The notes under the pieces were generated by a model. It was not told where the DNA came from and did not search any database. It saw only the letters and a list, made by a program, of their open reading frames with translations. The position numbers and the translations under genes were made by a program. Shown here one piece after another: positions 8,801-58,671 of a stretch of 64,000 nucleotides of DNA. The DNA lies in assembly GCA_025677605.1 (NCBI GenBank), contig GCA_025677605.1_4110.1, one strand, 5' to 3'. This DNA comes from a phage. How positions within the stretch are numbered: position 1 is the stretch's first letter; each line of letters opens with the position of its first letter.

Positions 8801-8801
8801 C

Positions 8802-8833
8802 AAAAAAGGAGAGCCAATGGCTCTCCTTTTCTT
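8802..8833. terminator. Bidirectional intrinsic terminator between convergent genes
   Basis: A-run, then perfect hairpin GGAGAGCC-AAT-GGCTCTCC (about 8808-8826), then T-run; reads as hairpin plus U-tract on both strands. Confidence 0.8.
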
Positions 8834-8834
8834 T

Positions 8835-46847: not shown

Positions 46848-47474
46848 TCAGTTTTTCGTATAAATAATATCCAGTGCTTTGTTTTCTAGGTCTTTTATAG
46901 TTCCATTATTCTTGATAATATAATGTGGGTTGTTAATACCAATCCATGCCCATTCAGATTCATGTACTGATTCCAGTTCAACTGGTTTCATTTGGATATC
47001 ACCTTTATTGTATGATGCTGCTAGACCATACCAGAATGGTAAATTGCGTTGAACTTCAATGATGATACCGTTATTTTCACGAATCATTTTCAATTCATTT
47101 GGAAAACGACAATCAGTAATGATAATGTTACCTTCTATGTCCATCATAGAACGTTCTAAACTGAATACCCAAATGTCATTATGCAAATAACGACGAACTA
47201 CATTAGTACCGTAATTTTGCAGTACCCAACGTGGTGAAACATCATCACGTCCTAATTTATTACACCAGTACTGATCCGGTTGTTCACGAATAGCACGACC
47301 TTCTTTAGTAGTTCCTTCTAGCATTTCCCTGTCCCAGCCAAAAATAGCTGCAACTGAATCTTTCAGGTTCTTTGCAAACGACATACGGGTATATCCATTA
47401 TCGATGAATGTTTTAGCGTATGTATCTTTACCACTTCCTATTGAGCCATTGATGGCTACGATTTTTCTTTCCAT
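46848..47474 (-). CDS. Deoxynucleoside monophosphate kinase-like protein
   Basis: P-loop INGSIGSGKDT resembling the T4 gp1 N-terminus; ~200 aa. Confidence 0.7.
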   Translation of the reverse strand: MERKIVAINGSIGSGKDTYAKTFIDNGYTRMSFAKNLKDSVAAIFGWDREMLEGTTKEGRAIREQPDQYWCNKLGRDDVSPRWVLQNYGTNVVRRYLHNDIWVFSLERSMMDIEGNIIITDCRFPNELKMIRENNGIIIEVQRNLPFWYGLAASYNKGDIQMKPVELESVHESEWAWIGINNPHYIIKNNGTIKDLENKALDIIYTKN

Positions 47475-47476
47475 AG

Positions 47477-47791
47477 TTACACTTCCTTCATATATTCATC
47501 ACCAACTAAGCTTCTAACTATATCAATAATAGTTTCATTACCGTTGTATACTGACACATATACAACATAAAATGTTTTTCCATTATCATCCCTGCATATA
47601 CTTGCCCATGCGTTAATTACATCCCTGGTGAATACATCAACTAATGCATTTTTGATAAATCGCCAGTACTGTTCTGATTCGAAATAATTGTCGCTTAATT
47701 TTCCACATCTGAATTTTGCATATTCAATTGTCATTATATCACCGTATATGAAAAAAGACCCCAACATGGAGTCTTTTTTTATTTTAACCAA
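47477..47791 (-). CDS. Hypothetical protein, start uncertain
   Basis: The annotated 5' end contains a terminator-like hairpin (about 47755-47776) and a GTGATATAATGA element overlapping an internal Met codon (47734-47732); true start probably internal. Confidence 0.45.
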   Translation of the reverse strand: MVKIKKDSMLGSFFIYGDIMTIEYAKFRCGKLSDNYFESEQYWRFIKNALVDVFTRDVINAWASICRDDNGKTFYVVYVSVYNGNETIIDIVRSLVGDEYMKEV

Positions 47792-48575
47792 TAATCATAC
47801 CAAGTGGTTCACCACCATCTTTGTATCTCTTCAACTGTTCTTTAAGTTGTTCCTGGAGTTGCATACCTTCATTACGAAGTGTATCACCATCCATTGAAAA
47901 TGTTCCTTGTGGTCCTGGTAAAGAAGCAAACTTAGCACGGTTGCGACCTAACATAATCATCGCTTCCGATAAAGCCCAATCACGAAGCCACGGATAACTC
48001 ATTTGACGTTGGAATAGTAGTGGTTCTGGGATGTTATGATACACATGAACCAGTACTTCTTCTGTGCCGCGAATATCACGGTCAATAACCAGTTTCTTAG
48101 TCATAGGGTTAAACTGGAAAATAATCTCACGTCCAAACATACGTCCTACTAATTCCTGAAACTGGAAACTGAAGTCATAGGTTGTTAAATCATAACCACC
48201 AGCGTTGCGAGCAGACGTTAGTAGATATGTGTTTGTAAATGCAATTGAAAATGGATCAACTGAGTTACCACTACCAGAACTCAAATAACCATTACCATAA
48301 CGATAAATTTTCTTAACAATTTCCACTTCAGTTGGTAACATGTAAACTGATTGAGAATCATAGAATTTCATGCTTAAAAAAGCTTCTTCTTTTGATGCAG
48401 AACTCCATGCTCTGTAGTTTGATACCGCATTATCGATTGCGATTTCTAATTGTCCATCAGTAATTTCAACTTCAACAGCACCAGCACCCAACATTTGTGT
48501 AATCACATCTTTTAATTTTTCACGGTGATCGTAATTTGGGGCATCTGGATTTCCACCCATATAGTCATATGACAT
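47784..48575 (-). CDS. Hypothetical protein
   Basis: 263-aa ORF. Confidence 0.7.
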   Translation of the reverse strand: MSYDYMGGNPDAPNYDHREKLKDVITQMLGAGAVEVEITDGQLEIAIDNAVSNYRAWSSASKEEAFLSMKFYDSQSVYMLPTEVEIVKKIYRYGNGYLSSGSGNSVDPFSIAFTNTYLLTSARNAGGYDLTTYDFSFQFQELVGRMFGREIIFQFNPMTKKLVIDRDIRGTEEVLVHVYHNIPEPLLFQRQMSYPWLRDWALSEAMIMLGRNRAKFASLPGPQGTFSMDGDTLRNEGMQLQEQLKEQLKRYKDGGEPLGMIIG

Positions 48576-48626
48576 AAAAAAGCACCTCTTTAATGTTTAT
48601 ATACATTATTTAGAGGTGCTATTGAT

Positions 48627-48839
48627 TTAGCTTAGTCTATCGTACCAACAACGCAAATAAACTAAGTTAACAAAGTGTTCAGTATCTATCATATCAAGGA
48701 AACCAAATATACTAACTGAATATATATGTTTCCCATCATGATAGTATATTATATAGTCTTGATTTGGCTCAATCCAGTAATGAGTATTTCCGACTATTAA
48801 TTTATGATTATAAACACCTGTTAAAAGATGATCGCTCAT
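48627..48839 (-). CDS. Hypothetical small protein
   Basis: 70-aa ORF. Confidence 0.45.
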   Translation of the reverse strand: MSDHLLTGVYNHKLIVGNTHYWIEPNQDYIIYYHDGKHIYSVSIFGFLDMIDTEHFVNLVYLRCWYDRLS

Positions 48840-49216
48840 TAACTTATCTTTGTACAGTTAGTGACAATGTGTTCAATATCTTTTTTAGTGAAGGGGCCGA
48901 GTACTAGAACCTCTTCCCCATTACCAAACATACTTAGTGGTACTGACTGCTGATTCGCAAGATATTCAATCTGCATCATTTCATCCATGTCATCTGCTTC
49001 ATAGACAACTTGTTCCAGTTCATTGTCTTTAATCCATGAATCCCAATGAGCTTTAAACTGTTTGGCTTCATATTCTTGAACATAGTTAGGGGATGCTGGG
49101 TTGTACTGATGTAGCATAGTCATGCCAGCCATAACCAATTCTTTTGGTGATGGGGTTTTACCTTTCAGTACTACGATAGCTTGAATAGTTTTTGCTTTCA
49201 CTTCATTAGCAGCCAT
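48839..49216 (-). CDS. Hypothetical protein, weak PTH2-like peptidyl-tRNA hydrolase resemblance
   Basis: IQAIVVLKGK N-terminus and VLVLGPFTKKDIEHIV C-terminus loosely resemble PTH2; weak. Confidence 0.55.
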   Translation of the reverse strand: MAANEVKAKTIQAIVVLKGKTPSPKELVMAGMTMLHQYNPASPNYVQEYEAKQFKAHWDSWIKDNELEQVVYEADDMDEMMQIEYLANQQSVPLSMFGNGEEVLVLGPFTKKDIEHIVTNCTKIS

Positions 49217-49228
49217 TTTATACCTCTA

Positions 49229-49537
49229 TTATAGGATGATTTTGTTGTCAGGGACAATCAACGCTGGCTTATCTTCTAGAGTCTTAATTGCTTCAACATA
49301 AGCATCAACCAGTGCAGGGTTTGCATCACTGATACTGATGATGTTAGATTTGAAGAAAATAACACCTTTTTCTGAACTAATAAATTCTAGATAATCACGT
49401 AGAATGATTTCACCTTTTTCGTCAGTACCTAGCTGTGCTGGGTAGTTAACTACTACTGCTTCTGGAGCATCGGTTTGTAGAACTGCTAGTACTGGGCCAA
49501 CGTTGTTGATGTTTAGTAGTTTAACGGTAATAGTCAT
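49229..49537 (-). CDS. Hypothetical protein (start trimmed to internal ATG)
   Basis: Track ORF 49229-49687 overlaps the upstream gene by 130 nt; ATG at 49537 (MTITVKLL) has an AAGGA RBS just after the upstream stop. Confidence 0.5.
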   Translation of the reverse strand: MTITVKLLNINNVGPVLAVLQTDAPEAVVVNYPAQLGTDEKGEIILRDYLEFISSEKGVIFFKSNIISISDANPALVDAYVEAIKTLEDKPALIVPDNKIIL

Positions 49538-49556
49538 TTTTGTCAAGTCCTTTTGT

Positions 49557-50069
49557 TTATTTGAGAATATATAAATGTTTTTCAGCATTAACCAGCCTGT
49601 GGTCAATGATTTCTTTGATAACGTTCCAGTTACCACCGCCCAAATCGGCTCCAATTTTCGGAAAGTGTACATGAACATTTCGTTCAATTTTACAGAAAAA
49701 ATTCAAATGCATGAAAACGTCATCAATGGCATCATAGCTTACGTATTTTGCACCATCAGTTCCGTACCATTTTTGAGTAATGCAGTTTGCGATAATCAAA
49801 TCATCATTAATTGCTGAATATGCAATTTGTCCGGTTCTTAGAAAACCCATTCTCTTTTCATATTCTTTATAATCATCATATGCCTTTGGGTACTGCATTC
49901 TGAGTTCTTTTGCAAAACCAGAACCCATTTTACCTTGAGCATTACAACCATGAGCTATAATATGTAATGCAGTATGATCATCAGTTACAGTACTGAATAA
50001 TTCAAACAGATTACCGTGATGTTCATGTATCATGTGTTCTCCGAAAAGAAAAGGACTCGAATATATCAA
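49557..50069 (-). CDS. Putative macro-domain (ADP-ribose binding/processing) protein
   Basis: HIIAHGCNAQGKMGSGFAKEL and FPKIGADLGGGNW resemble the two glycine-rich macro-domain loops; motif-only call. Confidence 0.5.
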   Translation of the reverse strand: MIYSSPFLFGEHMIHEHHGNLFELFSTVTDDHTALHIIAHGCNAQGKMGSGFAKELRMQYPKAYDDYKEYEKRMGFLRTGQIAYSAINDDLIIANCITQKWYGTDGAKYVSYDAIDDVFMHLNFFCKIERNVHVHFPKIGADLGGGNWNVIKEIIDHRLVNAEKHLYILK

Positions 50070-50087
50070 GTCCTTTATATTATTAGG

Positions 50088-50345
50088 TTATTCTTCTTCA
50101 CCGAAACGAATTTTCTTCAATTCTTTTCGATGCTTTCTTGCTATTGTACTTTTGTGAAGTCTATTACTACGTTTTGTGTCTTTTTCAATATACCAGCTAT
50201 CTTCTGGTGGATTGAAGTCACAATAACCATCTTCCGTAATTGTTCCTAAGAATGCAGATTTTTTAGGAATATTTGTTTGAGCTTTAGTCTGAAATTGACC
50301 TTTTGCTAATTGTTCACGAAAACTGAGCATAATAGTATCTCCCAA
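50088..50345 (-). CDS. Hypothetical small basic protein
   Basis: 85-aa ORF. Confidence 0.45.
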   Translation of the reverse strand: MGDTIMLSFREQLAKGQFQTKAQTNIPKKSAFLGTITEDGYCDFNPPEDSWYIEKDTKRSNRLHKSTIARKHRKELKKIRFGEEE

Positions 50346-50380
50346 ATTGTTAAGAAGAACTTGTTGTTCTTCAATATTAT

Positions 50381-50620
50381 TTAGGGGTTTTTTACAACCT
50401 CATGTGAAGCAATAAATGCTAAAATATCATCTTTACTAAACACTTCAATAATGTGAGAAATAGCAGCATCGTATTCTTCACGTCTTGATGTGTATTCTTT
50501 CATTTCATGAATTTTCTTTTGAGCTTTTTGTTTTGATTGGTTGATATCTGGAGTTTCAAATTTAACTCCCAAACTGTCAGCCAATGCACGTGCTCGTGAT
50601 GATACCTTATCGATATTCAT
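50381..50620 (-). CDS. Hypothetical small protein
   Basis: 79-aa ORF. Confidence 0.45.
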   Translation of the reverse strand: MNIDKVSSRARALADSLGVKFETPDINQSKQKAQKKIHEMKEYTSRREEYDAAISHIIEVFSKDDILAFIASHEVVKNP

Positions 50621-50868
50621 TAGTTCCAGCGACCTTCTTTTAGCCCGTTAACAAAACCAGTACATCCACCAGGAACATACTCATCATTTACGAAAATTTG
50701 TGGAACTTGACGAACTGGCTCACCGCAAATTTCTGATAGTTTAGCACCATCAATACCTTCAGAAACCACATCGATAAAATCCATTTCAAATGAATTGTTC
50801 TCACAAATTGCTTTTGCTGTATCACAGAAATTACAACCAGTCGTGCGACCATAAATTTTCACTTTCAT
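50620..50868 (-). CDS. Glutaredoxin/NrdH-like redoxin
   Basis: 82 aa with CxxC (CNFC) near the N-terminus and thioredoxin-fold pattern. Confidence 0.75.
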   Translation of the reverse strand: MKVKIYGRTTGCNFCDTAKAICENNSFEMDFIDVVSEGIDGAKLSEICGEPVRQVPQIFVNDEYVPGGCTGFVNGLKEGRWN

Positions 50869-50872
50869 ATAA

Positions 50873-51289
50873 CTATCCTTTATTTTTTTGAAACAATTTA
50901 ACAGCTTTAATTATACTGTTACACATTCGTTCGGTCAAATACTTTTGACAATCTTGAACATCAATGTACATGAATTTATCCAATTCTGGATGGCTTTTAC
51001 CATATCGATTGGTATAAGTACTGTTACACTTCAGTTCATCCGGTTCGGGTTTGTATTTAGCTGTATAGAAAAATAAAACTAATCTTTTCCCTTTCCTGTA
51101 TGATACATCACCTAATAAGAGAAGATCCTTTTCATCAATCTCAAATCCTGTTTCTTCATAGCACTCACGAACAGCAGCTTCAGCAAATGTTTCATTGCCC
51201 TCGGTTTTACCTTTTGGTAAATCCCAATGCTTCTGTCCGTGTTGTGTGTCCAACAAGTATCTGACCATCACGATAAAATATAATGCCAC
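50873..51289 (-). CDS. Nudix hydrolase
   Basis: Nudix box GKTEGNETFAEAAVRECYEETGFEI. Confidence 0.8.
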   Translation of the reverse strand: MALYFIVMVRYLLDTQHGQKHWDLPKGKTEGNETFAEAAVRECYEETGFEIDEKDLLLLGDVSYRKGKRLVLFFYTAKYKPEPDELKCNSTYTNRYGKSHPELDKFMYIDVQDCQKYLTERMCNSIIKAVKLFQKNKG

Positions 51290-51375
51290 AACTATAACGC
51301 ATAATCTTATCTCTTAATAGCAATGATGCCCAGATACAATTATTATATCAGAAGTCGTTCTCTTTTCCCAGAGTT

Positions 51376-52509
51376 TTAAAACATTTGTTGAATTGCTTCA
51401 CAACGTAAAACTGAAACAAAATCACGGATTTCAGATGCTTCTAACTCACCGTCTTTTACCAGTTGTTGAATATCTGGAAGTACTACATCAGTGTAACGAT
51501 CATATACCTTAATGATTAAATCTTCAAGGTCTAAATCAATCTCTTTACGTAGAATAAAATATTCCAGTACTTTGTAAAGGAATTCTTCACCGCCGTTATT
51601 CTTGATATTCATATCCAGTAATAATTGTCCCATTTCATTTGGGGTCTTTTTACGGAATGCCTTGATATCATCACGGAAACGTTTGATGTAATTACTGAAT
51701 TTAACGTACTTAACGGGCATTTTAATAGCACCATTCAGTACTGAATCCTCACCAATTTCTTCTTTCTCAAGAAGCACAGACCATAAGAAATATGGCTTAT
51801 ATGCTTCAGTACAATTATCAGAGATATGATCAATGAGTTCCAATGACTTTTTGGTTAATGTAGCATTAAATGCTTTTTCATAGTAACCAAACTTACTTAG
51901 TGTTTTAAGGAACTTAGCTGGCTTTTCTTCTGACAGTGCTTTTTCAAATTCAACATAAACACGGTCTGGAACAAGGTGATTTAGCTCACCAGACGCTACC
52001 ATATCGATTGCAAGTGCTTCAGTAGTCTCGTGTATAGAGAAATCAGAATAACGCGTAGCAAAGCGAGCTAGACGTAATACACGCAATGGATCTTCTTTGA
52101 AGTGTTCGGATACATGACGTAGTACTTTATTCTTGATATCAGCTTTACCACCGTATGGGTCGATGTGAATTTGCAGTACTGGATCATACGCGATTGCATT
52201 AATTGTAAGATCACGACGATACAAATCTTGTTCCAGTGTTACACCTTTTGTATCCACTTCGAAGCCACCGTATCCAGTACCAGTTTTTCGTTCAGTACGG
52301 GCTAATGCGTGTTCGTTACCTTCTGGGCTTAGATAAACTGGAAAATCTTTACCAACCTGTTTATATCCAATACTTTCTAAGTATTTGATATCAGATTCAG
52401 TTGCACCAACAATGACATAATCTTTGTCCTTTGCACGAATGCCCATTAGACGGTCGCGGCAGTATCCACCAACAAGGTATTTTTTCATTCTTATTCTCCC
52501 ATCAACCAA
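51376..52509 (-). CDS. tRNA nucleotidyltransferase (CCA-adding enzyme family)
   Basis: Head-domain motifs GGYCRDRLMG...DKDYV, RRDLTINA, EDPLRVLRLARFA; likely true start MKKYLVGG. Confidence 0.85.
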   Translation of the reverse strand: MVDGRIRMKKYLVGGYCRDRLMGIRAKDKDYVIVGATESDIKYLESIGYKQVGKDFPVYLSPEGNEHALARTERKTGTGYGGFEVDTKGVTLEQDLYRRDLTINAIAYDPVLQIHIDPYGGKADIKNKVLRHVSEHFKEDPLRVLRLARFATRYSDFSIHETTEALAIDMVASGELNHLVPDRVYVEFEKALSEEKPAKFLKTLSKFGYYEKAFNATLTKKSLELIDHISDNCTEAYKPYFLWSVLLEKEEIGEDSVLNGAIKMPVKYVKFSNYIKRFRDDIKAFRKKTPNEMGQLLLDMNIKNNGGEEFLYKVLEYFILRKEIDLDLEDLIIKVYDRYTDVVLPDIQQLVKDGELEASEIRDFVSVLRCEAIQQMF

Positions 52510-52624
52510 TCACGCAGACTTTCCCAGAAGCCTTTTGGCTTGTATTCTGGAACTTGATATTCGTCGGTTCCTTGTTCAGAAACACCCCAATCTTCTTCTA
52601 ACATTGCAATCATAAAGCCTCCAA

Positions 52625-53047
52625 TTAAATTAATCTGTCACGCAAGCGGGATTCATATTGTTTATGTATAGATAGTATATACTGAAATGAAGAATAGTCA
52701 ATACCAAATGTGTCATCAATGAACATATACTGGGCCAGTACTTCAGGTCCATCATCAACTACAGGCAATGAACCTGCTTTTTTTTCTAACACATTCCATG
52801 CAAACTCATCGGAAGTATCAAATCTATGGTATTGTAGTTCTATCTTACTTTTTCTTAGTATAATTAATAATTCATCACCATCATCATATGCATTACGGAT
52901 TTTAATACGTACTGTTCCTTGTAACTGGTTAGTATACATTACGCGATATTGGTTGTATGTGACTAAACCACGTCTTTCAGTACTGAACTCTTGTTCAGAA
53001 AAGTACTTTAACGTTTCGTTGAATTTGGGTATTTTAGTAACGTCCAA
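52625..53047 (-). CDS. Hypothetical protein, tandem paralog 1
   Basis: C-terminus AQYMFIDDTFGIDYSSFQYILSIHKQYE matches paralog 2. Confidence 0.6.
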   Translation of the reverse strand: MDVTKIPKFNETLKYFSEQEFSTERRGLVTYNQYRVMYTNQLQGTVRIKIRNAYDDGDELLIILRKSKIELQYHRFDTSDEFAWNVLEKKAGSLPVVDDGPEVLAQYMFIDDTFGIDYSSFQYILSIHKQYESRLRDRLI

Positions 53048-53450
53048 TTACGTAATCCTCATACTGTTCGTATACACGCATTATACTCTGATATGTCACA
53101 AAGTCAATACCAAAGGTATCATCAATGAACTGATATTGCATAAACTCTTCCTCGGTAGCACCAATAGGAAGTGTGCCGTTTCGTTGATCGTTTGATTGAA
53201 CATCTTCAATGTACATCAAACCTATACTTTCATCTAAAGTGATATCTATCATAAAAACATCTTCACTATAAAACATGTTATATGAACGGATGAAAAGATT
53301 ACCAGTTCTATCAAAACTTGATACATGTGTTTCAACGTAGGTTCTATCTAAACTAAAGAATAAACCAGTACCATCGGGTTTTCGTTGGTCTTTCAATTTA
53401 ATTTCGATAGCATCAAATATCGGTTTAATATTAAACTTTTTCATAAGCAA
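53034..53450 (-). CDS. Hypothetical protein, tandem paralog 2
   Basis: C-terminus MQYQFIDDTFGIDFVTYQSIMRVYEQYE matches paralog 1. Confidence 0.6.
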   Translation of the reverse strand: MLMKKFNIKPIFDAIEIKLKDQRKPDGTGLFFSLDRTYVETHVSSFDRTGNLFIRSYNMFYSEDVFMIDITLDESIGLMYIEDVQSNDQRNGTLPIGATEEEFMQYQFIDDTFGIDFVTYQSIMRVYEQYEDYVIGRY

Positions 53451-53629
53451 ATCACATACTTATTACTATGTGGATCGTAACAGTAAGAGTCGTTCACCTT
53501 AATGCCAGGTTTGAGTTCCAGGGTTGTACCCATTTCAGTACTGGGTTCTGCATCAAAGTAAATCATCACACCAATGCCACCGAGTAAGGCTATGATACAT
53601 ATAACTGCACCTATTGTATATTCCATCAC
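53441..53629 (-). CDS. Small predicted membrane protein
   Basis: 62 aa with hydrophobic span GAVICIIALLGGIGVMIYF. Confidence 0.5.
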   Translation of the reverse strand: MMEYTIGAVICIIALLGGIGVMIYFDAEPSTEMGTTLELKPGIKVNDSYCYDPHSNKYVICL

Positions 53630-53642
53630 TATACCTCTGTTA

Positions 53643-53729
53643 TAAAAAGTAATTATACATTTTATTGTACAATATAAAAAGGTCTTAAAAAGTAATTATA
53701 CATTTTATTGTACAATATAAAAAGGTCTT
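53643..53729. repeat. Perfect 43-bp tandem direct repeat (2 copies), each with palindrome TATTGTACAATA
   Basis: 53644-53686 and 53687-53729 are identical; overlaps the stop of gene 53662-54075 and the intergenic space before 53441-53629. Confidence 0.9.
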
Positions 53730-54075
53730 TCACATTATCATAAGTAATGTTAGATAGATCATAAATCAATGATAACTGAAAAAATGAAGCTTCGTCTATA
53801 TCTACTGGGATTATAACATCATCATCTTCTGCCATTTTATTATCGTAGTATTTTATGTGGTCTTCATTAAACTCAATAGAGATTGATACTGCGTTGGATT
53901 TCATATCTTCAATTAATCCAATCAAATTAGATTTATCATTAATAAAAAATCCAATTCCAACCCTACGGTCCTCTGGATATGGATAGTACCATCTATTAAA
54001 TACTAGACTATCTGGTAAATCAACATCATGTGTTGATACGAGAGATTTTACAATTTCCATCCAAGCATAATTCAT
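53662..54075 (-). CDS. Hypothetical protein
   Basis: 137-aa ORF whose last ~20 codons are encoded by the 43-bp repeat. Confidence 0.6.
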   Translation of the reverse strand: MNYAWMEIVKSLVSTHDVDLPDSLVFNRWYYPYPEDRRVGIGFFINDKSNLIGLIEDMKSNAVSISIEFNEDHIKYYDNKMAEDDDVIIPVDIDEASFFQLSLIYDLSNITYDNVKDLFILYNKMYNYFLRPFYIVQ

Positions 54076-54094
54076 AATTAAAACTCCATAAGAA

Positions 54095-54122
54095 AAGGGA
54101 CAGAATTAATCTGTCCCTTTAT
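54095..54122 (-). terminator. Intrinsic terminator
   Basis: GGGACAG-AATTAAT-CTGTCCC hairpin followed by a U-tract on the minus-strand transcript. Confidence 0.65.
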
Positions 54123-54126
54123 TATA

Positions 54127-54459
54127 TTACTCTTCTTCGTCAGTTACATCAACTACAACTGGACGGTCTGGATGGTTTCGGCGGTGCAATTTAATGCTTT
54201 TGTCTTTACTGAATACAGTTTCCATTTTTTCGAATGAATCGACAATCGCCTTGTATAAATCTGCATCATCGGCAGTAACAGACTTACCACCTGATGTTAA
54301 AGTTACTGCGTACTGTGTCTTATGCTCTTTTTTCACATGAACACCAATATTCAGTACTGAAGAATCACTAAATTTATTTAGAGTGTTTGCTTCTTGATGA
54401 ATTGCGTCATGGATTGCTGGAGTAATATCAACATTACCTTGAATAACTAGATTTAGCAT
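54127..54459 (-). CDS. Ribosome hibernation promoting factor-like protein (HPF/YfiA/RaiA family)
   Basis: 110 aa colinear with bacterial HPF: MLNLVIQGNVDITPAIHDAI vs MQLNITGNNVEITEALREFV, then VHVKKEH...TLTSGGKSV...DLYKAIVDSFEKME. Confidence 0.8.
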   Translation of the reverse strand: MLNLVIQGNVDITPAIHDAIHQEANTLNKFSDSSVLNIGVHVKKEHKTQYAVTLTSGGKSVTADDADLYKAIVDSFEKMETVFSKDKSIKLHRRNHPDRPVVVDVTDEEE

Positions 54460-54473
54460 ACTTCACCTTCCTT

Positions 54474-55400
54474 TTAGATTGAGCTTAACAAAGTATCCGC
54501 TCTGTTTGTTACTTGCCTATACCATAAGGAATTTTTGATTTCTCTTTTAAACTTCTTATGATTTTCAGCTTCAGCACTTCTCCATAGTTTATTAAATGAG
54601 GCCAACTTATCAACACCCATCGTGTAAGCCATGTCAAAGAGAATACGTTGTTGGTCTTTTGTAAGATTTACTGCATTTTTTTTCTTCATTAGAGTTGTAA
54701 AGTCATTATATGTCCTTTTCAAATCTTGAAGTAATAGTTTATGTGCTTGTGCGTTGGTAATACCGTTTCTGTACTTAATTGCATCAGATTCTTTCTTACC
54801 TAAGTAATGTCCATAACCTATTGTATAATTACCTTTCATATCCTTATAAGGATGAAATTTTGAATTGTAGAAAGGAACTCCAACTTTTCCCCCAAGTAAA
54901 CGTCTTTTGTTCTTGGACTGAAATTCAATTGAACCTTCAGCTTCTTTGATGTGTGCTACTATTTCAGGATCATTATAATCGAAAAGTACTACCACATCAG
55001 GTAACAGTACGTCTTTCAAATCCTCTTTTGTTGGGATAAAGATACCCTGCGATGTATGAAGTTTAGCATTAAGATTGATATTCTTCAATACTGTAACGTA
55101 ATCTTCAAACAACACATTATGCGGTTTAAACTTCTTAGCTATCGAATGATAACTATCACCGTATTCAACAGTATAATGTTTCTCGCTGCCTGGAACTACT
55201 TTAGGTGTATACCCTTTAGGTAATTCCTGCTTTTGAATTTGTGTAACTTGCGGTTTTAAATTGTGCACCTGACTTTCGCCCGATGATGATGCACGATCAT
55301 GTTGAGAAAAACCATAAAATCCAAACGCAGCGATGATAACAAGTGAAACTAATAAGCCTATAGCTGTCTTAGTTTTAGGTGTTTGTATCGCTATTGTCAA
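54474..55400 (-). CDS. Endolysin: N-terminal signal-anchor, LysM, T4-lysozyme-like (GH24) domain
   Basis: Hydrophobic anchor GLLVSLVIIAAFGFYGF; LysM-like HYTVEYGDSYHSIAKKF; GNYTIGYGH and LWYRQVTNRADTLL match T4 lysozyme YYTIGIGH and RWYNQTPNRAKRVI. Confidence 0.85.
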   Translation of the reverse strand: MTIAIQTPKTKTAIGLLVSLVIIAAFGFYGFSQHDRASSSGESQVHNLKPQVTQIQKQELPKGYTPKVVPGSEKHYTVEYGDSYHSIAKKFKPHNVLFEDYVTVLKNINLNAKLHTSQGIFIPTKEDLKDVLLPDVVVLFDYNDPEIVAHIKEAEGSIEFQSKNKRRLLGGKVGVPFYNSKFHPYKDMKGNYTIGYGHYLGKKESDAIKYRNGITNAQAHKLLLQDLKRTYNDFTTLMKKKNAVNLTKDQQRILFDMAYTMGVDKLASFNKLWRSAEAENHKKFKREIKNSLWYRQVTNRADTLLSSI

Positions 55401-55533
55401 AAACGCCTCCTTTGTTTGCGTGTTATGATGAGCAATTACAAAGAGGGCTTATGAGGCCATTTGCAAAAGCCTCATCGGACTTTCTACAATACTTTCAGTA
55501 CTGAAAAGGTAACTTTCATTCTGTACATGTAAG

Positions 55534-55562
55534 TAGTATAGCATCTTTCAATTTCATATCAA
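55534..55562 (-). promoter_or_regulatory. Putative sigma70-type promoter (TTGATA-16nt-TATACT)
   Basis: Minus strand reads TTGATA, 16-nt spacer, TATACT; the 14-bp palindrome TTTCAGTACTGAAA (55493-55506) lies in the predicted leader. Confidence 0.4.
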
Positions 55563-55647
55563 GTAAAATCTTGATATTTCTTTTGGTTATAATTATGGGT
55601 ATATTAATACCCATTTTATTTAGCCAATTGTATGACAAACCTATAGG

Positions 55648-56058
55648 TTAGTCGTAGTACGTTCTCCCTACTGTGAGGTGATAACGTAAGTACTTTGATT
55701 GTAATCCTAGTTCATTGCGAATGTGTCCAATGAATTCATCATCGAACTCTATGATAAAGAACGAGCCTGGTTTCTTTTTATCTTTCACTTGAACAATATC
55801 AGGATTGAATTTTATTTTAATTTTTTGACCATCGTACTTTTTCCAGTACTCTGGATTTGGTGGCACTTCACCTCGAACAATACTGACGTGTGCTCCCCAT
55901 TGTGGGTCTTTAACATCAATGTGTAGATCAGTTCTGATGAAGTACTGGTAGTATCTAACCAACTGTAATGGAAGTTGCAGTACTAACCAGAAGTCCTTCT
56001 TCTTTTTCATAGTGCCACGGTCTGGATCATACACCAGAGTTCCTTCCATTTCAATCAT
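55648..56058 (-). CDS. Hypothetical protein
   Basis: 136-aa ORF. Confidence 0.6.
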   Translation of the reverse strand: MIEMEGTLVYDPDRGTMKKKKDFWLVLQLPLQLVRYYQYFIRTDLHIDVKDPQWGAHVSIVRGEVPPNPEYWKKYDGQKIKIKFNPDIVQVKDKKKPGSFFIIEFDDEFIGHIRNELGLQSKYLRYHLTVGRTYYD

Positions 56059-56065
56059 ATTTTAC

Positions 56066-56269
56066 CTATAAATGTACATATATGTTTTTATTTTCAATAC
56101 GAACATATGTTTCCAAAACATCTTTTGGAATTTTATTACTTGTTTTGTACCATGTAGTATTATCTACTAAAACAAAAGTTTCACCGTCAGTTTCACCAAA
56201 TGTACTCAATGCATAAATGAAGTAATTTGGTGCTGCACTACAATAGATATCAGCATTAATTTCAATCAT
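56066..56269 (-). CDS. Hypothetical small protein
   Basis: 67-aa ORF. Confidence 0.5.
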   Translation of the reverse strand: MIEINADIYCSAAPNYFIYALSTFGETDGETFVLVDNTTWYKTSNKIPKDVLETYVRIENKNIYVHL

Positions 56270-56272
56270 ATT

Positions 56273-56407
56273 TTACACCACTACAAAGCTTAACACAACT
56301 AATGTAATAAACACACCGACAATGGCGGTCATTTCTGGATTTGCATCATAAGTGTAGCGAATACACTTAACAAAATCCGATCCAAATTTCTTTAATCCTT
56401 TCATCAT
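56273..56407 (-). CDS. Small hydrophobic ORF (44 aa), not in the supplied track
   Basis: ATG at 56407 after AAGGAAAAAA; encodes MMKGLKKFGSDFVKCIRYTYDANPEMTAIVGVFITLVVLSFVVV; stop 3 nt before the next start. Confidence 0.3.
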   Translation of the reverse strand: MMKGLKKFGSDFVKCIRYTYDANPEMTAIVGVFITLVVLSFVVV

Positions 56408-56456
56408 TTTTTTCCTTTTTTAACATCAAACATAAAGACTTCTACGTATACCACGG

Positions 56457-56843
56457 TCAATTCCCCAAATCTGATAAGATATCTAAGATTATATCATGAA
56501 TTTCGAAATCTGTGTAAGAAAAGTTTCGTGTGAGCTTATCATTAACTTCATCAATGGACAACATTTGATATCCGACTAGTACACCCTGAACACGACTGCG
56601 TTTAACTCTTGAGTACAGGTAAGAAGGTACTGAAATACGAGTCCCAAGAAATGTAGTACCTTCCCCATATAACTCTACTGTATATCGGTTCTTACTTTTG
56701 TTTCTTACATTAACATAGCATTGTGGATAACGTCTAGGTGTAATACTTTCATACAACATAGATGCAAAACTATCTTTAGAATTATAATACTTTTTGACGA
56801 TCTCAGTAAATCGTTTAGTATGTCTTTTTTTCCATCTCATCAT
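56457..56843 (-). CDS. Hypothetical protein
   Basis: 128-aa ORF. Confidence 0.55.
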   Translation of the reverse strand: MMRWKKRHTKRFTEIVKKYYNSKDSFASMLYESITPRRYPQCYVNVRNKSKNRYTVELYGEGTTFLGTRISVPSYLYSRVKRSRVQGVLVGYQMLSIDEVNDKLTRNFSYTDFEIHDIILDILSDLGN

Positions 56844-57301
56844 TTAGATCCTATAAAAACTAATGGAAAATATATCTCATCATAAGTTGAGAGTGATTTA
56901 CATTTCTGAATCATCTCATAATGGATAATTTCAGATTCAATATTAGGATATGGAACAGGTGTAGGTGTGGATGGTTGTAATGCATAAAATGTATCTAATC
57001 TATTATATTCACCCATTGGTGTATTACTCCCATCTGGATATCTAACTTCGATCATAACCTGACAATTCGTTGTGTCATCCCACACATAAAATAACTCTTG
57101 TGCTACGCATTGGACTGAATAATTACCATCAAATGCACTAAACATCGCACCGTCATAGTATCGGAATTGAGGATTTGTATATCCAAGAATTTCAGCTAAT
57201 ATATTAGCTTTGTGTTCATAAAAATCCATTTTCAATAGATTAGTATCTTTACAAACATCAACCAAACGATACAAGCATTGCAATATTTCACGATTAATCA
57301 T
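56840..57301 (-). CDS. Hypothetical protein
   Basis: 153-aa ORF overlapping the downstream gene by 4 nt. Confidence 0.6.
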   Translation of the reverse strand: MINREILQCLYRLVDVCKDTNLLKMDFYEHKANILAEILGYTNPQFRYYDGAMFSAFDGNYSVQCVAQELFYVWDDTTNCQVMIEVRYPDGSNTPMGEYNRLDTFYALQPSTPTPVPYPNIESEIIHYEMIQKCKSLSTYDEIYFPLVFIGSK

Positions 57302-57347
57302 AATATTACCTTAAAAATATTCCCCACATAGTGAGGAATATAAAGTT

Positions 57348-57581
57348 TTAGTCATCTTTATCAAGCAACTCTTGCAATTCTTCACGATATGTGAAATACG
57401 AGATGATGATAAGTAGAACGACAATTGCAGTAATTACAATCCATACTGGTACAAAATGTAATACTAATGCGAACATCAATATTACTAAAATGCTCATTGC
57501 AGTACTGAATAGTAGTTTCACTGTATCAACAAAACCATCCAACAAGCGTACTGCAATATTTTTAAGTAGTTTATCAACCAT
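57348..57581 (-). CDS. Small predicted membrane protein
   Basis: 77 aa with two hydrophobic spans. Confidence 0.5.
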   Translation of the reverse strand: MVDKLLKNIAVRLLDGFVDTVKLLFSTAMSILVILMFALVLHFVPVWIVITAIVVLLIIISYFTYREELQELLDKDD

Positions 57582-58164
57582 TTTTATTCCTCATATAGTT
57601 TTTATAACATTTTCTACACAGGCTCTTATATGATTCATCACCACCAATAAACACTTTATCAGTACTATCTACGATGCGAGCATTCATTATGGCATTTCTT
57701 CCGCACTTTTGATTTTCACATACGTTCTTTAATTCATGGATCTCATCTGCTATTTCAAATAACCTTTGAGAACCTTCAAATGTATTTGATTCAAAATCGG
57801 TTTTAATACCATAACAATATACATCAACCATATGCTCATCAGCAATATCGGCTAATAAATCAATTTGTTTTCGATTTAAAAACTGACATTCATCAACGTA
57901 GATACTATTATAATCATTGTCAACCTGTAATAGTTTTATTACGTCATGAATAACGCTTAGGTCATCTTTTGGAATAACTTGAGCTTCAGATTCTATACCG
58001 ATTCTCGATGTTATTTTACCAGTACCATAACGATCATCTAATGCACTCGTTAAGTAGATGACTTTCATCCCGTTCTTCTTGTGGTTATATGCGTTCTGTA
58101 AAAGATGTGTACTCTTTCCTGATGACATACTCCCACTAAAGAAAATAAGTTTACCCATAACCAA
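57574..58164 (-). CDS. tdk: Thymidine kinase
   Basis: P-loop FFSGSMSSGKST, YVDECQF Walker B-like, C-terminal zinc ribbon CENQKCGRNA...CRKCY. Confidence 0.9.
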   Translation of the reverse strand: MVMGKLIFFSGSMSSGKSTHLLQNAYNHKKNGMKVIYLTSALDDRYGTGKITSRIGIESEAQVIPKDDLSVIHDVIKLLQVDNDYNSIYVDECQFLNRKQIDLLADIADEHMVDVYCYGIKTDFESNTFEGSQRLFEIADEIHELKNVCENQKCGRNAIMNARIVDSTDKVFIGGDESYKSLCRKCYKNYMRNKNG

Positions 58165-58172
58165 TCCTTAGT

Positions 58173-58343
58173 TTATAAACTTGTTTCTGTTGTACTAATT
58201 ACACTACCTCCGTATAGTAATTTTACAGTAATGCGTTTATGTGGTGAAGTACTACCATCACTATTCCACAGTTCTACATCTTCTGATTCTATTTCTACAC
58301 TAAGATTATTTCGAATTAGTAATTCTATATCTGTTTCATCCAT
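58173..58343 (-). CDS. Small hypothetical ORF (56 aa), not in the supplied track
   Basis: ATG at 58343 just after the upstream stop; encodes MDETDIELLIRNNLSVEIESEDVELWNSDG...; stop 8 nt before the tdk start. Confidence 0.3.
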   Translation of the reverse strand: MDETDIELLIRNNLSVEIESEDVELWNSDGSTSPHKRITVKLLYGGSVISTTETSL

Positions 58344-58671
58344 TTTTAATTCTCAAAAAAGTATGTTTACATTTTACTCTTTGTCCGTAATAAGAAACAC
58401 CTTCATTGAACATTTCAATCTTACCTTCTTTAAGAAGACGTAAGATATCAGGGTCATTCTTCGTTTGAACACAATGTTTTCCATTAACCTGTAATTCTGC
58501 ACCGCTTTTCAGAATTTCATAAATCAATTTGCGGCGTTTCCCGCCATAAGGTGCATCACGCACTGTATCAAGTAATACCTTACATTCAGGCTTTAAATCT
58601 CGGTGTAGTTTTCCATCTTTCGAAACGTATGTTTCAAAAGCATTATAGTTCTTACTACCTCTAAGTGCCAT
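58336..58671 (-). CDS. Hypothetical basic protein
   Basis: 111-aa ORF. Confidence 0.55.
   Translation of the reverse strand: MALRGSKNYNAFETYVSKDGKLHRDLKPECKVLLDTVRDAPYGGKRRKLIYEILKSGAELQVNGKHCVQTKNDPDILRLLKEGKIEMFNEGVSYYGQRVKCKHTFLRIKNG

Follow-up and report, generated by a model that had tools for sequence, protein, structure and literature searches.

Published comparative genomics has set out a framework of RNA repair and NAD-ADP-ribose metabolism for jumbo phages in general (PMC7824862, PMC9503650). Relatives of several proteins considered here have been studied directly: in vitro, the T4 Nudix hydrolase NudE.1 has ADP-ribose, Ap3A, FAD and NAD as substrates of hydrolysis and also decaps NAD-RNA, and LC-MS/MS of a lysate of phage fENko-Kae01 detected its HPF-like, CCA-adding and Nudix proteins. 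The window, a stretch of 64,000 nucleotides, derives from an Asteriusvirus jumbo coliphage with 98.5% identity to phage A4 across the aligned 57% of the region. Both its genes and their interpretation in terms of RNA repair and NAD-ADP-ribose metabolism are already known for this group of phages; the sole novelty is a +1 frame break in the Nudix gene. The reading favoured here, with a probability of about 0.55, is that the genes form an island of accessory genes, conserved among Rak2-like jumbo phages, that keeps translation running during infection.

Content, order and division of the island

Between 48839 and 55400 there are 15 ORFs, every one of them on the minus strand, as are all features described below, in agreement with a preliminary description of this region as a single-strand cluster. 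The observed grouping of genes for tRNA ends, ADP-ribose or NAD and ribosome binding is confirmed as real, and three members can be added to it: a 2H phosphoesterase, an Sm-like protein and an unannotated 70-aa ORF. The island is positioned with nucleotide-metabolism genes on one side and neck and tail-sheath genes on the other, its flanks including genes for dNMP kinase, thymidine kinase, NrdD and thymidylate synthase.

Gene order is retained across the Rak2-like genera at protein identities of 30-60%. The common order, lysozyme-HPF-(paralogues)-CCA-Nudix-Grx-x-x-macro-x-PTH2 fold-neck-dNMP kinase-sheath, is retained in fENko-Kae01 (identities to the window of 34% for HPF, 38% for the PTH2-fold protein and 59% for CCA), GAP32 and Hallingskeid, while in K64-1 the CCA, Nudix and PTH2-fold genes have the same relative order. 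This conservation in other genera is a stronger argument for clustering than a random-placement simulation, in which at least six genes fell within an 18-gene stretch with P ~1e-4; this speaks against chance, with the proviso that the input of ~15 RNA, translation and NAD genes among ~670 was chosen post hoc from subjective categories.

Descent by itself could explain the conserved order, which counts against a role in maintaining translation. The corresponding alternative, that unrelated accessory genes act singly and have been kept in place by common ancestry in one lineage, is nonetheless judged unlikely. It is favoured by the fact that the order-sharing phages form one clade, with genomes of 310-386 kb, and by the great frequency of Nudix and macro homologues among the accessory genes of phages (1264 phage records for Nudix, 1788 for macro); 7-8 of the ~18 island genes have no predicted function, and further RNA and translation genes are scattered elsewhere in Asteriusvirus genomes (PNK and RNA ligase ~50 kb away, tRNA genes, IF3, TadA, SIR2 and a second Nudix). 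On the T4 map nudE.1 adjoins lysozyme e and the tRNA cluster, and tk.4 lies near tk; on that basis the island would be an old T4-like arrangement. Mere descent sits less easily with retention of the order despite divergence of the proteins to 30-40% identity, with the near contiguity of the macro, Sm-like and PTH2-fold genes, or with the gain of RNA-related genes at the GAP32 locus (an RNA ligase, a DUF2828/DUF7788 protein annotated as RNA-binding, and YqeY). Furthermore, a CCA gene and a Nudix gene again occur within 3 kb in the distant Vibrio phage 2.275.O.

Rather than forming a single operon, the island breaks up into a minimum of three or four transcription units, because three terminator-like hairpins divide it, a division that also suits genes acting singly. 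One follows the HPF gene (54094..54120; AAAGGGACAG-attaatt-CTGTCCCTTT then TCTT), at a position matching a terminator in the UE-S1 annotation. Another lies in the interval between an 85-aa ORF and the macro gene (50050..50076; 11-bp stem then TCTTTTC). The third, read from the sequence, follows the 70-aa ORF directly before the neck-protein gene (48581..48620) and consists of a 9-bp stem, a 21-nt loop and a T5 run (AGCACCTCT ... AGAGGTGCT TTTTT ATG). The functional module proposed in the preliminary description is supported in part, by its domains, by the 2H and Sm-like proteins and by the RNA genes of GAP32, but the hairpins split the stretch and the endolysin falls outside the theme.

Several conserved genes separate the recognisable ones. 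A 137-aa protein (53662..54075; phrog_36582, E 9e-62) has no match in a Pfam search, and next to it a small 62-aa protein with a hydrophobic N-terminal stretch belongs to phrog_4189 (53441..53629). Two overlapping paralogous genes of 138 and 140 aa (52625..53450) match phrog_20693 at E 1e-58 and 2e-44, and a similarly sized gene pair occupies their position in fENko-Kae01. A 40-aa ORF (52491..52613; phrog_34272, E 7e-30) is annotated in A4 and UE-S1. Two further small ORFs, of 79 and ~80-85 aa (50088..50620), correspond to phrog_34640 and phrog_15319; the 79-aa protein gives a weak, sub-threshold Glutaredoxin match and has no CxxC.

The CCA-adding enzyme and the Nudix-glutaredoxin pair

Pfam gathering cut-offs are exceeded by the CCA enzyme, Nudix, glutaredoxin, HPF-like and lysozyme proteins alike, in accordance with their earlier assignment. 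The first is a class II tRNA nucleotidyltransferase of the CCA-adding type, 370 aa long and without an HD phosphohydrolase domain (51376..52488); its start is probably at 52488, correcting the listed ORF 51376-52509. It matches the PolyA_pol head (65.6 bits, cut-off 23) and PolyA_pol_RNAbd (31.3 bits, cut-off 22), the E. coli-type Cca model PRK10885 of NCBIfam (272 bits, over model positions 1-201 of 409 only), and solved CCA- and A-adding enzymes (E 1e-22 to 1e-15), and its translation contains the motifs GGxxRD..DxD, RRDxTINA and EDPLR. The suggested theme of tRNA 3'-end repair fits this enzyme but is weakened by the location elsewhere of the canonical tRNA-repair pair, PNK and RNA ligase, and of the tRNA genes. 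A simpler task exists for it, completing phage tRNAs that have no encoded CCA; such tRNAs make up two of six in A4 and three of six in fEgEco12.

The Nudix gene follows the CCA gene directly in all relatives, and in the window it occupies two frames (50873..51302). The previously listed ORF, 50873-51289, covers only what lies downstream of a 1-nt break in the frame: the whole gene opens with an ATG at 51302 and 21 conserved codons, succeeded by one extra base and then by 121 codons in the +1 frame. The extra base is the C at 51239, inside ACA ACA C GGA, and the insertion is conserved. Purifying selection acts on both halves, and the zero-frame codon at the break, CGG, is extremely rare; judged from the sequence, this suggests programmed +1 frameshifting. 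The downstream ORF reaches 47.6 bits against Pfam NUDIX (cut-off 21.1), frame correction moves the start of the alignment from profile position 24 to 7, and the Nudix box G-x5-E-x7-REUxEExGU is intact. T4-like nudE homologues share 37-44% identity with the protein. Four nucleotides past the Nudix stop begins a GrxA-like glutaredoxin of 82 aa with a C-N-F-C motif (50620..50868; Pfam 36.9 bits, cut-off 22.9; NCBIfam GrxA E 1.9e-18, under cut-off), and in EJP2 and Hallingskeid the two are a single fused gene, at least one true functional pair within the island.

Such a fusion is no better a pointer to ADP-ribose than to the metabolism of nucleotides or redox compounds. Ribonucleotide reductase has GrxA as its classical reductant, and the pair could sanitise or balance (d)NTPs beside the ribonucleotide reductase, thymidine kinase, dNMP kinase and thymidylate synthase encoded next to the island, rather than serve ADP-ribose- or NAD-based counter-defence. 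This remains a somewhat doubtful possibility: the Nudix protein does match MutT models, but weakly and far under their cut-offs, whereas T4 NudE.1, its closest characterised homologue, prefers ADP-ribose, Ap3A, FAD, NAD and NAD-RNA, and the constant position behind the CCA gene likewise argues against it. The ADP-ribose and NAD theme of the preliminary description draws on the macro and Nudix genes, but the glutaredoxin fusion fits nucleotide or redox metabolism equally well.

The macro trio and the lysozyme-HPF end

Domain searches, on which the preliminary description had staked its macro, PTH2 and HPF assignments, did not fail for any of the three. The 158-aa macro domain protein (49557..50033, its start probably at 50033) is sub-threshold in Pfam (17.2 bits, cut-off 22), yet phmmer matches it to solved macro structures, namely BT1257 (1e-13), SCO6735 (1.4e-9) and the yeast Appr-1''-p phosphatase (7.5e-8). 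It also matches phrog_335 'phosphatase' (E 7e-44), and its homologues include the annotated tk.4 of Aeromonas phage 65, placing both in the same family. A TARG1-type Lys/Asp pair is absent from the domain when read by eye. No KptA/Tpt1 was found within the island, and therefore any source of Appr>p would have to be the host.

An Sm/LSm-like beta-barrel protein of 102 aa, whose Sm-like fold is confirmed (49229..49537), begins 19 nt past the macro stop and is followed after 12 nt by the 125-aa PTH2-fold protein (48839..49216; Pfam PTH2 20.6 bits, cut-off 23). The fold proposed for the latter stands, but the catalytic loop is missing: D-[A/R]-G-x-T, shared by the four solved Pth2 enzymes of the alignment, is replaced by FGNGEE with an 8-residue deletion, and hydrolase activity predicted from the fold is consequently unproven. 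The family is confined to Rak2-like jumbo phages (71 records). The start of the 70-aa ORF (48627..48839) overlaps the PTH2-fold stop (TAATG); its frame is also open in A4, UE-S1 and Turkey3, free of stop codons, with protein-level similarities of 98.6%, 34% and 29%, respectively, though the ORF is absent from the annotation of all three.

At the other end, just beyond the limits of the preliminary description, is a 136-aa 2H 'Swiss Army Knife' phosphoesterase (55648..56058), in which H57-x-S59 and H127-x-T129 are invariant across 17 homologues. Pfam PF22547 (2H-SAK) is matched by 16 of 17 family members (best E 3.9e-10), with no reported match for the window's own copy; the orthologue in the GAP32 island scores 32 bits (cut-off 27). 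The RNA and ADP-ribose theme is strengthened by this adjacent phosphoesterase and by the Sm-like protein.

The neighbouring 308-aa lysozyme (54474..55400) has an N-terminal hydrophobic helix indicative of membrane anchoring, a weak LysM (15.1 bits, under the Pfam cut-off) and a GH24 domain (Phage_lysozyme 47.6 bits, cut-off 22.3). It is probably the endolysin, and as such probably lies outside the RNA theme; its placement mid-island again suits an assemblage of unrelated genes. Of two predicted lysozymes in phAPEC6, Gp293, presumably its counterpart, was not detected in purified virions. Fourteen nucleotides past its stop begins a short, 110-aa HPF/RaiA-like ribosome-binding factor whose C-terminal tail is acidic (54127..54459; Ribosomal_S30AE 40.8 bits, cut-off 23.7; solved HPFs E 5e-7 to 1e-5; TIGR00741 34.8, under its cut-off of 40.9). 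This spacing and the hairpin behind the HPF gene suggest that the two are co-transcribed.

Co-transcription with the endolysin gene would also speak for a reading in which the island serves host takeover instead of repair or evasion of defences, with the HPF-like factor parking or silencing host ribosomes, the Nudix enzyme stripping NAD caps and so affecting RNA stability, and the Sm-like protein remodelling RNA. The confirmed HPF and Sm-like folds and the decapping of NAD-RNA by NudE.1 are compatible with this, and phage HPF homologues have been proposed as competitors of host hibernation factors, but no HPF of phage rV5 was found on ribosomes (PMC6375957), a result that also weighs against the preferred reading. 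As host and phage mRNA are indistinguishable to an HPF-type factor, and helix 1 is, by eye, less rich in basic residues in the window's protein than in HPF or RaiA of E. coli, takeover appears decidedly improbable.

Proposed role in maintaining translation

On the preferred reading, of an island that keeps translation running, the genes would fall into four groups: the CCA enzyme; three enzymes of RNA-end and NAD/ADP-ribose processing, namely the 2H protein, the tk.4-family macro domain and the NudE.1-like Nudix coupled to a glutaredoxin; the tight macro, Sm-like and PTH2-fold trio; and the HPF-like factor. The CCA enzyme may complete phage tRNAs lacking an encoded CCA and restore damaged 3' ends, while idle ribosomes would carry the HPF-like protein in their decoding site. 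Removal of ADP-ribose, NAD, NAD caps and phosphates that are 2',3'-cyclic or linked to ADP-ribose could fall to the 2H, macro and Nudix enzymes, these substrates, like any cooperation between the genes, being predicted from the domains and their arrangement. The compounds removed would be products of RNA repair or of NAD-based immunity in the host, and a role in countering such defences would be in line with published comparative genomics of jumbo phages (PMC7824862, PMC9503650).

A reading-frame break in the Nudix hydrolase gene

The Nudix hydrolase gene (50873-51302, minus strand) is divided between two reading frames by one extra base. The Nudix ORF listed by the ORF finder covers only the downstream portion of the gene; further upstream, at 51302, an ATG that follows a GAGA-rich sequence resembling a ribosome-binding site opens MRYSCGIIFYRDGQILVGHTT, which is the N-terminus of the intact Nudix orthologues in the Rak2-like phages fENko-Kae01, GAP32 and K64-1, while the remainder of the protein (GQKHWDLPKGK...) lies in the +1 frame relative to this ATG. 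The frame break (51236-51302, minus strand) contains an extra C at 51239, in the context CAC ACA ACA C GGA CAG. In the Nudix profile alignment, the frame-corrected protein aligns from position 7 and the listed ORF only from position 24. The seven core Asteriusvirus genomes (the window, A4, UE-S1, Turkey3, 121Q, SD-15_S21 and JNE01) all have the extra base, and the break site is invariant within this clade; the reading frame is continuous in 11 relatives, a count in which GAP32 and RaK2/K64-1 each appear twice. As seven independently sequenced genomes carry the identical base, sequencing error can be rejected.

Both parts of the gene are under purifying selection. Within the frame-broken clade the downstream part has a dN/dS of 0.05-0.08, with pS reaching 0.67, and the 21 upstream codons have a pS of 0.15-0.44 against a pN of 0-0.02. 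Decay of the gene as a pseudogene is unlikely. In the other frame, interrupted by a stop codon in four of the five genomes, these upstream substitutions are non-synonymous. Internal initiation is disfavoured as the explanation for the split gene: in the stretch from the internal ATG to the break, substitutions are silent in the upstream frame but change the amino acid in the downstream frame, whose stop codon lies further upstream. The break is explained most economically by a programmed +1 frameshift, the alternative being a Nudix protein made in two pieces. The codon in the zero frame at this point, CGG, is the rarest of the arginine codons (2 of 17,193 codons in the window's long ORFs), and A4 encodes a tRNA-Thr(UGU) and an unannotated tRNA-Gly(UCC), matching ACA and GGA respectively. 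The specific proposal, to which a probability of a little under one half is attached, is that ribosomes would pause on CGG at ACA-ACA-C-GGA and resume with GGA read by the phage tRNA-Gly(UCC), such that Nudix output would track the tRNA pool as infection proceeds.

Rare-codon ('hungry codon') +1 sites are known from yeast Ty1 (CUU-AGG-C) and Ty3 (GCG-AGU-U), and from E. coli prfB. The Nudix break resembles them in having one base to be skipped and a rare zero-frame codon, CGG, in the A site. It differs in that no stop codon, conserved Shine-Dalgarno-like stimulator or conserved downstream structure was found at the break, RNAalifold applied to five genomes giving a weak fold that lacks covariation support. 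In addition, P-site re-pairing of tRNA-Thr from ACA to CAC would be poor, and the frameshift is, unlike those at the known sites, predicted from sequence. Decoding by a quadruplet-reading tRNA was also considered and rejected, since the anticodon loops of the phage tRNA-Thr genes are of the normal size, 7 nt. The public records looked at annotate only the downstream Nudix ORF or, in SD-15_S21 and JNE01, an ORF of similar size as 'hypothetical'.

The Nudix box (G-x5-E-x7-R-E-U-x-E-E-x-G-U) is intact in the translation (GKTEGNETFAEAAVRECYEETGF), and the downstream ORF scores 47.6 bits against PF00293. Homologues of the T4 nudE type, with 37-44% identity over most of the protein, are present in 1264 records. 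T4 NudE.1 (gene e.1) hydrolyses ADP-ribose, Ap3A, FAD and NAD in vitro, and decaps NAD-RNA. The window protein shares homology and an intact Nudix box with this enzyme, but the full Asteriusvirus protein needs a +1 frame change and is coupled to a glutaredoxin, to which the Nudix domain is fused in EJP2 and Hallingskeid. The glutaredoxin (50620-50868; PF00462, 36.9 bits) has a thioredoxin fold with a CxxC motif, C-N-F-C at residues 12-15, and its gene is 4 nt from that of the Nudix protein. The fusions are single proteins of 225-227 aa (266-943 of the EJP2 region, 2475-3158 of the Hallingskeid region), and the EJP2 record names its copy 'glutaredoxin 1'. In A4 the labels are swapped, with a 79-aa ORF called 'glutaredoxin' and the real glutaredoxin 'hypothetical'.

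Conservation and organisation of the island

The Nudix gene lies within an island of minus-strand genes (approximately 48627-56058), bordered by genes for thymidine kinase and NrdD on one side and for the neck protein, a dNMP kinase and the tail sheath on the other; all ORFs between 48839 and 55400 are on the minus strand. The interval 48600-55500 matches 41 phage records by megablast, every one from an enterobacterial jumbo phage. Escherichia phage A4 comes nearest, with 98.5% identity across 57% of the query, and the 121Q/PBECO4/slurp01 group matches at approximately 83% identity over 96%. The gene content and order of A4 are those of the window, apart from one additional ORF of 1068 bp, which separates the CCA gene from a 40-aa ORF. 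This 355-aa ORF, A4_535 (7886-8953 of the A4 region), contains a treble-clef zinc-finger domain (DUF4379), overlaps the start of the CCA gene and is absent from the window (at ~52490); it is probably a mobile insertion. An Rfam scan of 47000-58500 returned no match at E<=0.1.

The domain calls made in a preliminary description of 48839-55400 hold. The CCA-type nucleotidyltransferase, Nudix, glutaredoxin, S30AE/HPF and phage lysozyme assignments exceed the Pfam gathering scores, and the macro domain is upheld through solved structures and phrog_335. The PTH2-like call holds for the fold: the Pth2 fold is there, but the conserved Pth2 loop is gone and the Pfam score falls under the cut-off. The same description had grouped these genes as a module for repairing tRNA ends, processing NAD or ADP-ribose products and modulating ribosomes. 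In this respect the island is thematically coherent and conserved, but it consists of several transcription units rather than a single operon. Terminator-like hairpins follow the HPF-like gene, an 85-aa ORF and a 70-aa ORF, the first of which is annotated in UE-S1, and seven or eight of the island's genes lack a functional assignment. Credible tight sub-units number at least two, Nudix-glutaredoxin and macro/Sm-like/PTH2-fold.

The order lysozyme, HPF-like, paralogue pair, CCA, Nudix, glutaredoxin, two small ORFs, macro, Sm-like, PTH2-fold and neck protein is kept in fENko-Kae01, GAP32 and Hallingskeid, with identities between fENko-Kae01 and the window of 34% for the HPF-like, 38% for the PTH2-fold and 59% for the CCA protein. 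The GAP32 island also holds an RNA ligase, a DUF2828/DUF7788 protein annotated as RNA-binding, a 2H-SAK protein and YqeY. A random-placement simulation gave P ~1e-4, calculated post hoc, for finding 6 of approximately 15 such genes within 18 consecutive genes. Since this order is shared only by phages of one clade, common descent could be enough to maintain it. Related functions are also found elsewhere: tRNA genes, IF3, TadA, SIR2 and a second Nudix lie outside the island, and in fEgEco12 PNK and RNA ligase are approximately 50 kb away.

In the published scheme (PMC7824862, PMC9503650), which these enzymes match, the 2H protein would open 2',3'-cyclic or 1'',2''-cyclic phosphates, the macro protein would remove the 1''-phosphate or other ADP-ribose adducts, and the Nudix hydrolase would split ADP-ribose, NAD or NAD caps. 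As no KptA is seen within the island, a chain of this kind would have to draw on the host's KptA or on products of host immunity; RNA ligase and PNK are likewise absent from the Asteriusvirus island. In fENko-Kae01 lysate, LC-MS/MS detected three of the proteins: the HPF-like, CCA and Nudix ones. Packaging of island proteins into virions was considered and rejected on two grounds: these detections come from ultrafiltered lysate, and the phAPEC6 virion proteome lists none between the neck protein gp280 and gp306.

Individual members of the island

The HPF-like protein (54127-54459) scores 40.8 bits against a Pfam cut-off of 23.7 for S30AE (PF02482) and is matched by solved HPFs at an E value of 5e-7, but reaches only 34.8 against the TIGR00741 cut-off of 40.9. 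It resembles HPF/RaiA (YfiA) in having a single S30AE domain and the size of a short HPF, and its acidic C-terminal tail is, in our reading, reminiscent of RaiA. It differs from the bacterial proteins in its scores of approximately 20-35 bits to their models, under the TIGR00741 cut-off, and from long HPFs in lacking the C-terminal dimerisation domain. The GAP32 orthologue is already among the phage HPFs reported by Mizuno et al. 2019 (PMC6375957), and the only experimental datum on a phage HPF is that the rV5 protein did not co-purify with ribosomes (PMC6375957). Ribosome binding by the window protein is putative. GenBank records of relatives label the gene 'putative sigma factor'.

The lysozyme (54474-55400) has an N-terminal hydrophobic helix. 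Its presumed counterpart in phAPEC6, Gp293, one of two predicted lysozymes, went undetected in purified virions, which makes the role of endolysin, as given in the preliminary description, likely. Upstream of the gene is an unusually long non-coding gap of approximately 250 bp (55401-55647), which contains a promoter-like site (TTGATA-16-TATACT, TG-extended) as well as two hairpins; a lysozyme-HPF transcription unit may begin here. The neighbouring gene on the upstream side (55648-56058) encodes a 2H phosphoesterase with invariant H-x-S/T motifs, HVS and HLT. The 2H-SAK model PF22547 is matched by 16 of its 17 homologues, the window copy having no reported match, and the GAP32 orthologue exceeds the Pfam cut-off. 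With regard to an Acb1-like identity, a sequence search with the 2H-SAK profile against chains of solved structures returned no relative. Between the HPF-like and CCA genes lie two overlapping paralogues of 138 and 140 aa (52625-53450, minus strand; phrog_20693), and a gene pair of similar size occupies this position in fENko-Kae01.

The product of the CCA gene (51376-52488) is a class II tRNA nucleotidyltransferase, predicted to be of the CCA-adding type. It scores 65.6 bits for PolyA_pol, the class II head motifs A-E (GGxxRD..DxD, RRD, EDxxR) can be read in its translation, and its matches among solved structures include A-adding, CCA-adding and poly(A) enzymes; it misses every NCBIfam equivalog cut-off. 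It shares catalytic motifs with E. coli Cca and aligns with the head and neck of that family (PRK10885, positions 1-201 of 409, 272 bits), but its C-terminal half is unrelated and lacks the HD domain of the multifunctional enzyme; Pfam detected no HD phosphohydrolase domain in the protein, and none was found elsewhere in the island. As the match ends at 201 of 409 and there is no HD domain, the 'multifunctional ... phosphatase' label given in A4 and other GenBank records is unsupported. In Vibrio phage 2.275.O and Aeromonas phage 65 a small stand-alone gene for an HD-domain protein or 'metal-dependent phosphohydrolase' lies within 1-2 kb past the CCA gene, and it looks as if these phages encode the HD half of bacterial Cca separately; the window yielded no gene of this type. 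CCA genes are contained in 417 phage records, with matches mislabelled 'Appr-1-p processing domain protein' in CRJP21 and 'phosphatase' in 121Q.

No tRNA genes were found in the 64-kb window, so the CCA gene is not adjacent to tRNAs. Two of the six tRNAs of A4 (Asn and Thr) and three of the six in fEgEco12 have no encoded CCA; completing these would be the simplest job for the enzyme, with repair of trimmed 3' ends second. An encoded CCA is present in the A4 tRNA-Gly(UCC), identified by ARAGORN at 304999-305074 of the A4 record and absent from its GenBank annotation.

The genes for the macro (49557-50033), Sm-like (49229-49537) and PTH2-fold (48839-49216) proteins are separated by 19 and 12 nt, and their order is kept in fENko-Kae01, GAP32, Hallingskeid and K64-1. 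The macro domain (PF01661) scores 17.2 bits against a cut-off of 22, but phmmer matches solved macro domains (BT1257, 1e-13; SCO6735, 1.4e-9; yeast ADP-ribose-1''-phosphate (Appr-1''-p) phosphatase, 7.5e-8), and phrog_335 is matched at an E value of 7e-44. Members of the family, tk.4 of Aeromonas phage 65 among them, occur in 1788 phage records. With regard to the catalytic Lys (and Asp) by which TARG1/DarG-type enzymes take ADP-ribose off macromolecules, the phage protein, compared by eye with human TARG1, has ITQK in place of ITKK and IGADLGGG in place of IGCGLD. The match to DarG is at domain level only (30.8 bits against a cut-off of 250 in NCBIfam). The Sm-like protein has the five-stranded bent beta-barrel of the Sm type.

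The fold of the PTH2-fold protein is that of Pth2, with its alpha/beta arrangement, although the score against PF01981 is 20.6 bits (cut-off 23, E 5e-4), six of 21 family members match that model at E<=0.01 (best 3.2e-8), and Atu0240, a protein of unknown function, is an equally good structural match. In profile alignments, four solved Pth2 enzymes all carry D-[A/R]-G-x-T-x-x-x-P-G-T before a conserved G-P. The proposed catalytic Asp of Pth2 lies in this D-[A/R]-G-x-T loop. Relative to archaeal and eukaryotic Pth2 (1wn2, 2zv3, 1xty), the phage family has a deletion of eight residues at the loop, where the window protein reads FGNGEE, and the N-terminal Lys position is variable rather than conserved. 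The protein is therefore at most a putative hydrolase. A search of 5.8 billion proteins found only eight close homologues, and an exhaustive profile search of 1.84 billion representatives only 19 relatives, with no bridge to canonical Pth2 beyond weak Pfam matches. The family is confined to Rak2-like jumbo phages, with 71 records of 310-386 kb and one fragment, and its genes lie near the CCA gene wherever both positions were seen. A 70-aa ORF (48627-48839, minus strand) has an ATG overlapping the PTH2-fold stop codon (TAATG). It is open, with protein-level similarity of 29-99%, in A4, UE-S1 and Turkey3, where it is unannotated, and is absent from fENko-Kae01 and GAP32, in which the gap is approximately 50 bp.

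Relation to earlier work and significance

The individual genes, and their reading as an RNA-repair and NAD/ADP-ribose set in jumbo phages, are already known. Such sets were published by Iyer, Burroughs, Aravind et al. (PMC7824862, PMC9503650), the excerpts of which give the same rationale of tRNA repair, clearing of ADP-ribose derivatives and countering of NAD depletion, and cite QAY00582.1 (SIR2) and QAY00367.1 (NADAR) as jumbo-phage examples. These accessions carry the prefix of proteins of the Asteriusvirus Ecwhy_1, and QAY00582.1 is given as an Ecwhy_1 match in the fEgEco12 gene table. An Asteriusvirus paper lists the HPF-like and CCA genes among translation genes (PMC11895373), and public records annotate macro, Nudix, glutaredoxin, CCA tRNA nucleotidyltransferase and HPF/RaiA, some also a peptidyl-tRNA or aminoacyl-tRNA hydrolase. 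By contrast, the excerpts of PMC7824862 and PMC9503650 list families per genome, and describe neither the syntenic island and the macro/Sm-like/PTH2-fold trio nor the Pth2 loop loss, the Nudix-glutaredoxin fusion or the frame break. New in this analysis are the recognition of a 2H and an Sm-like member, the missing Pth2 loop, the fusion of Nudix and glutaredoxin in relatives and the conserved frame break.

The gene cluster mainly confirms published comparative genomics, in which large phages are equipped with genes of their own for tRNA ends, RNA-end chemistry and NAD/ADP-ribose turnover. In practice it offers a conserved target, compact at 7.5 kb, in a coliphage that can be cultured. With it one can ask whether phage CCA enzymes act on those phage tRNAs that have no encoded CCA or mend damage done by defences, what role phage HPF homologues play, and whether a new activity resides in a Pth2 fold that lacks its catalytic loop and is accompanied by a macro domain and an Sm-like protein. 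If the programmed +1 frameshift is real, current Nudix annotations are wrong across the genus; it would be a recoding event in a phage accessory enzyme, of which no earlier report was found, and would add a rare type of recoding to phage biology.
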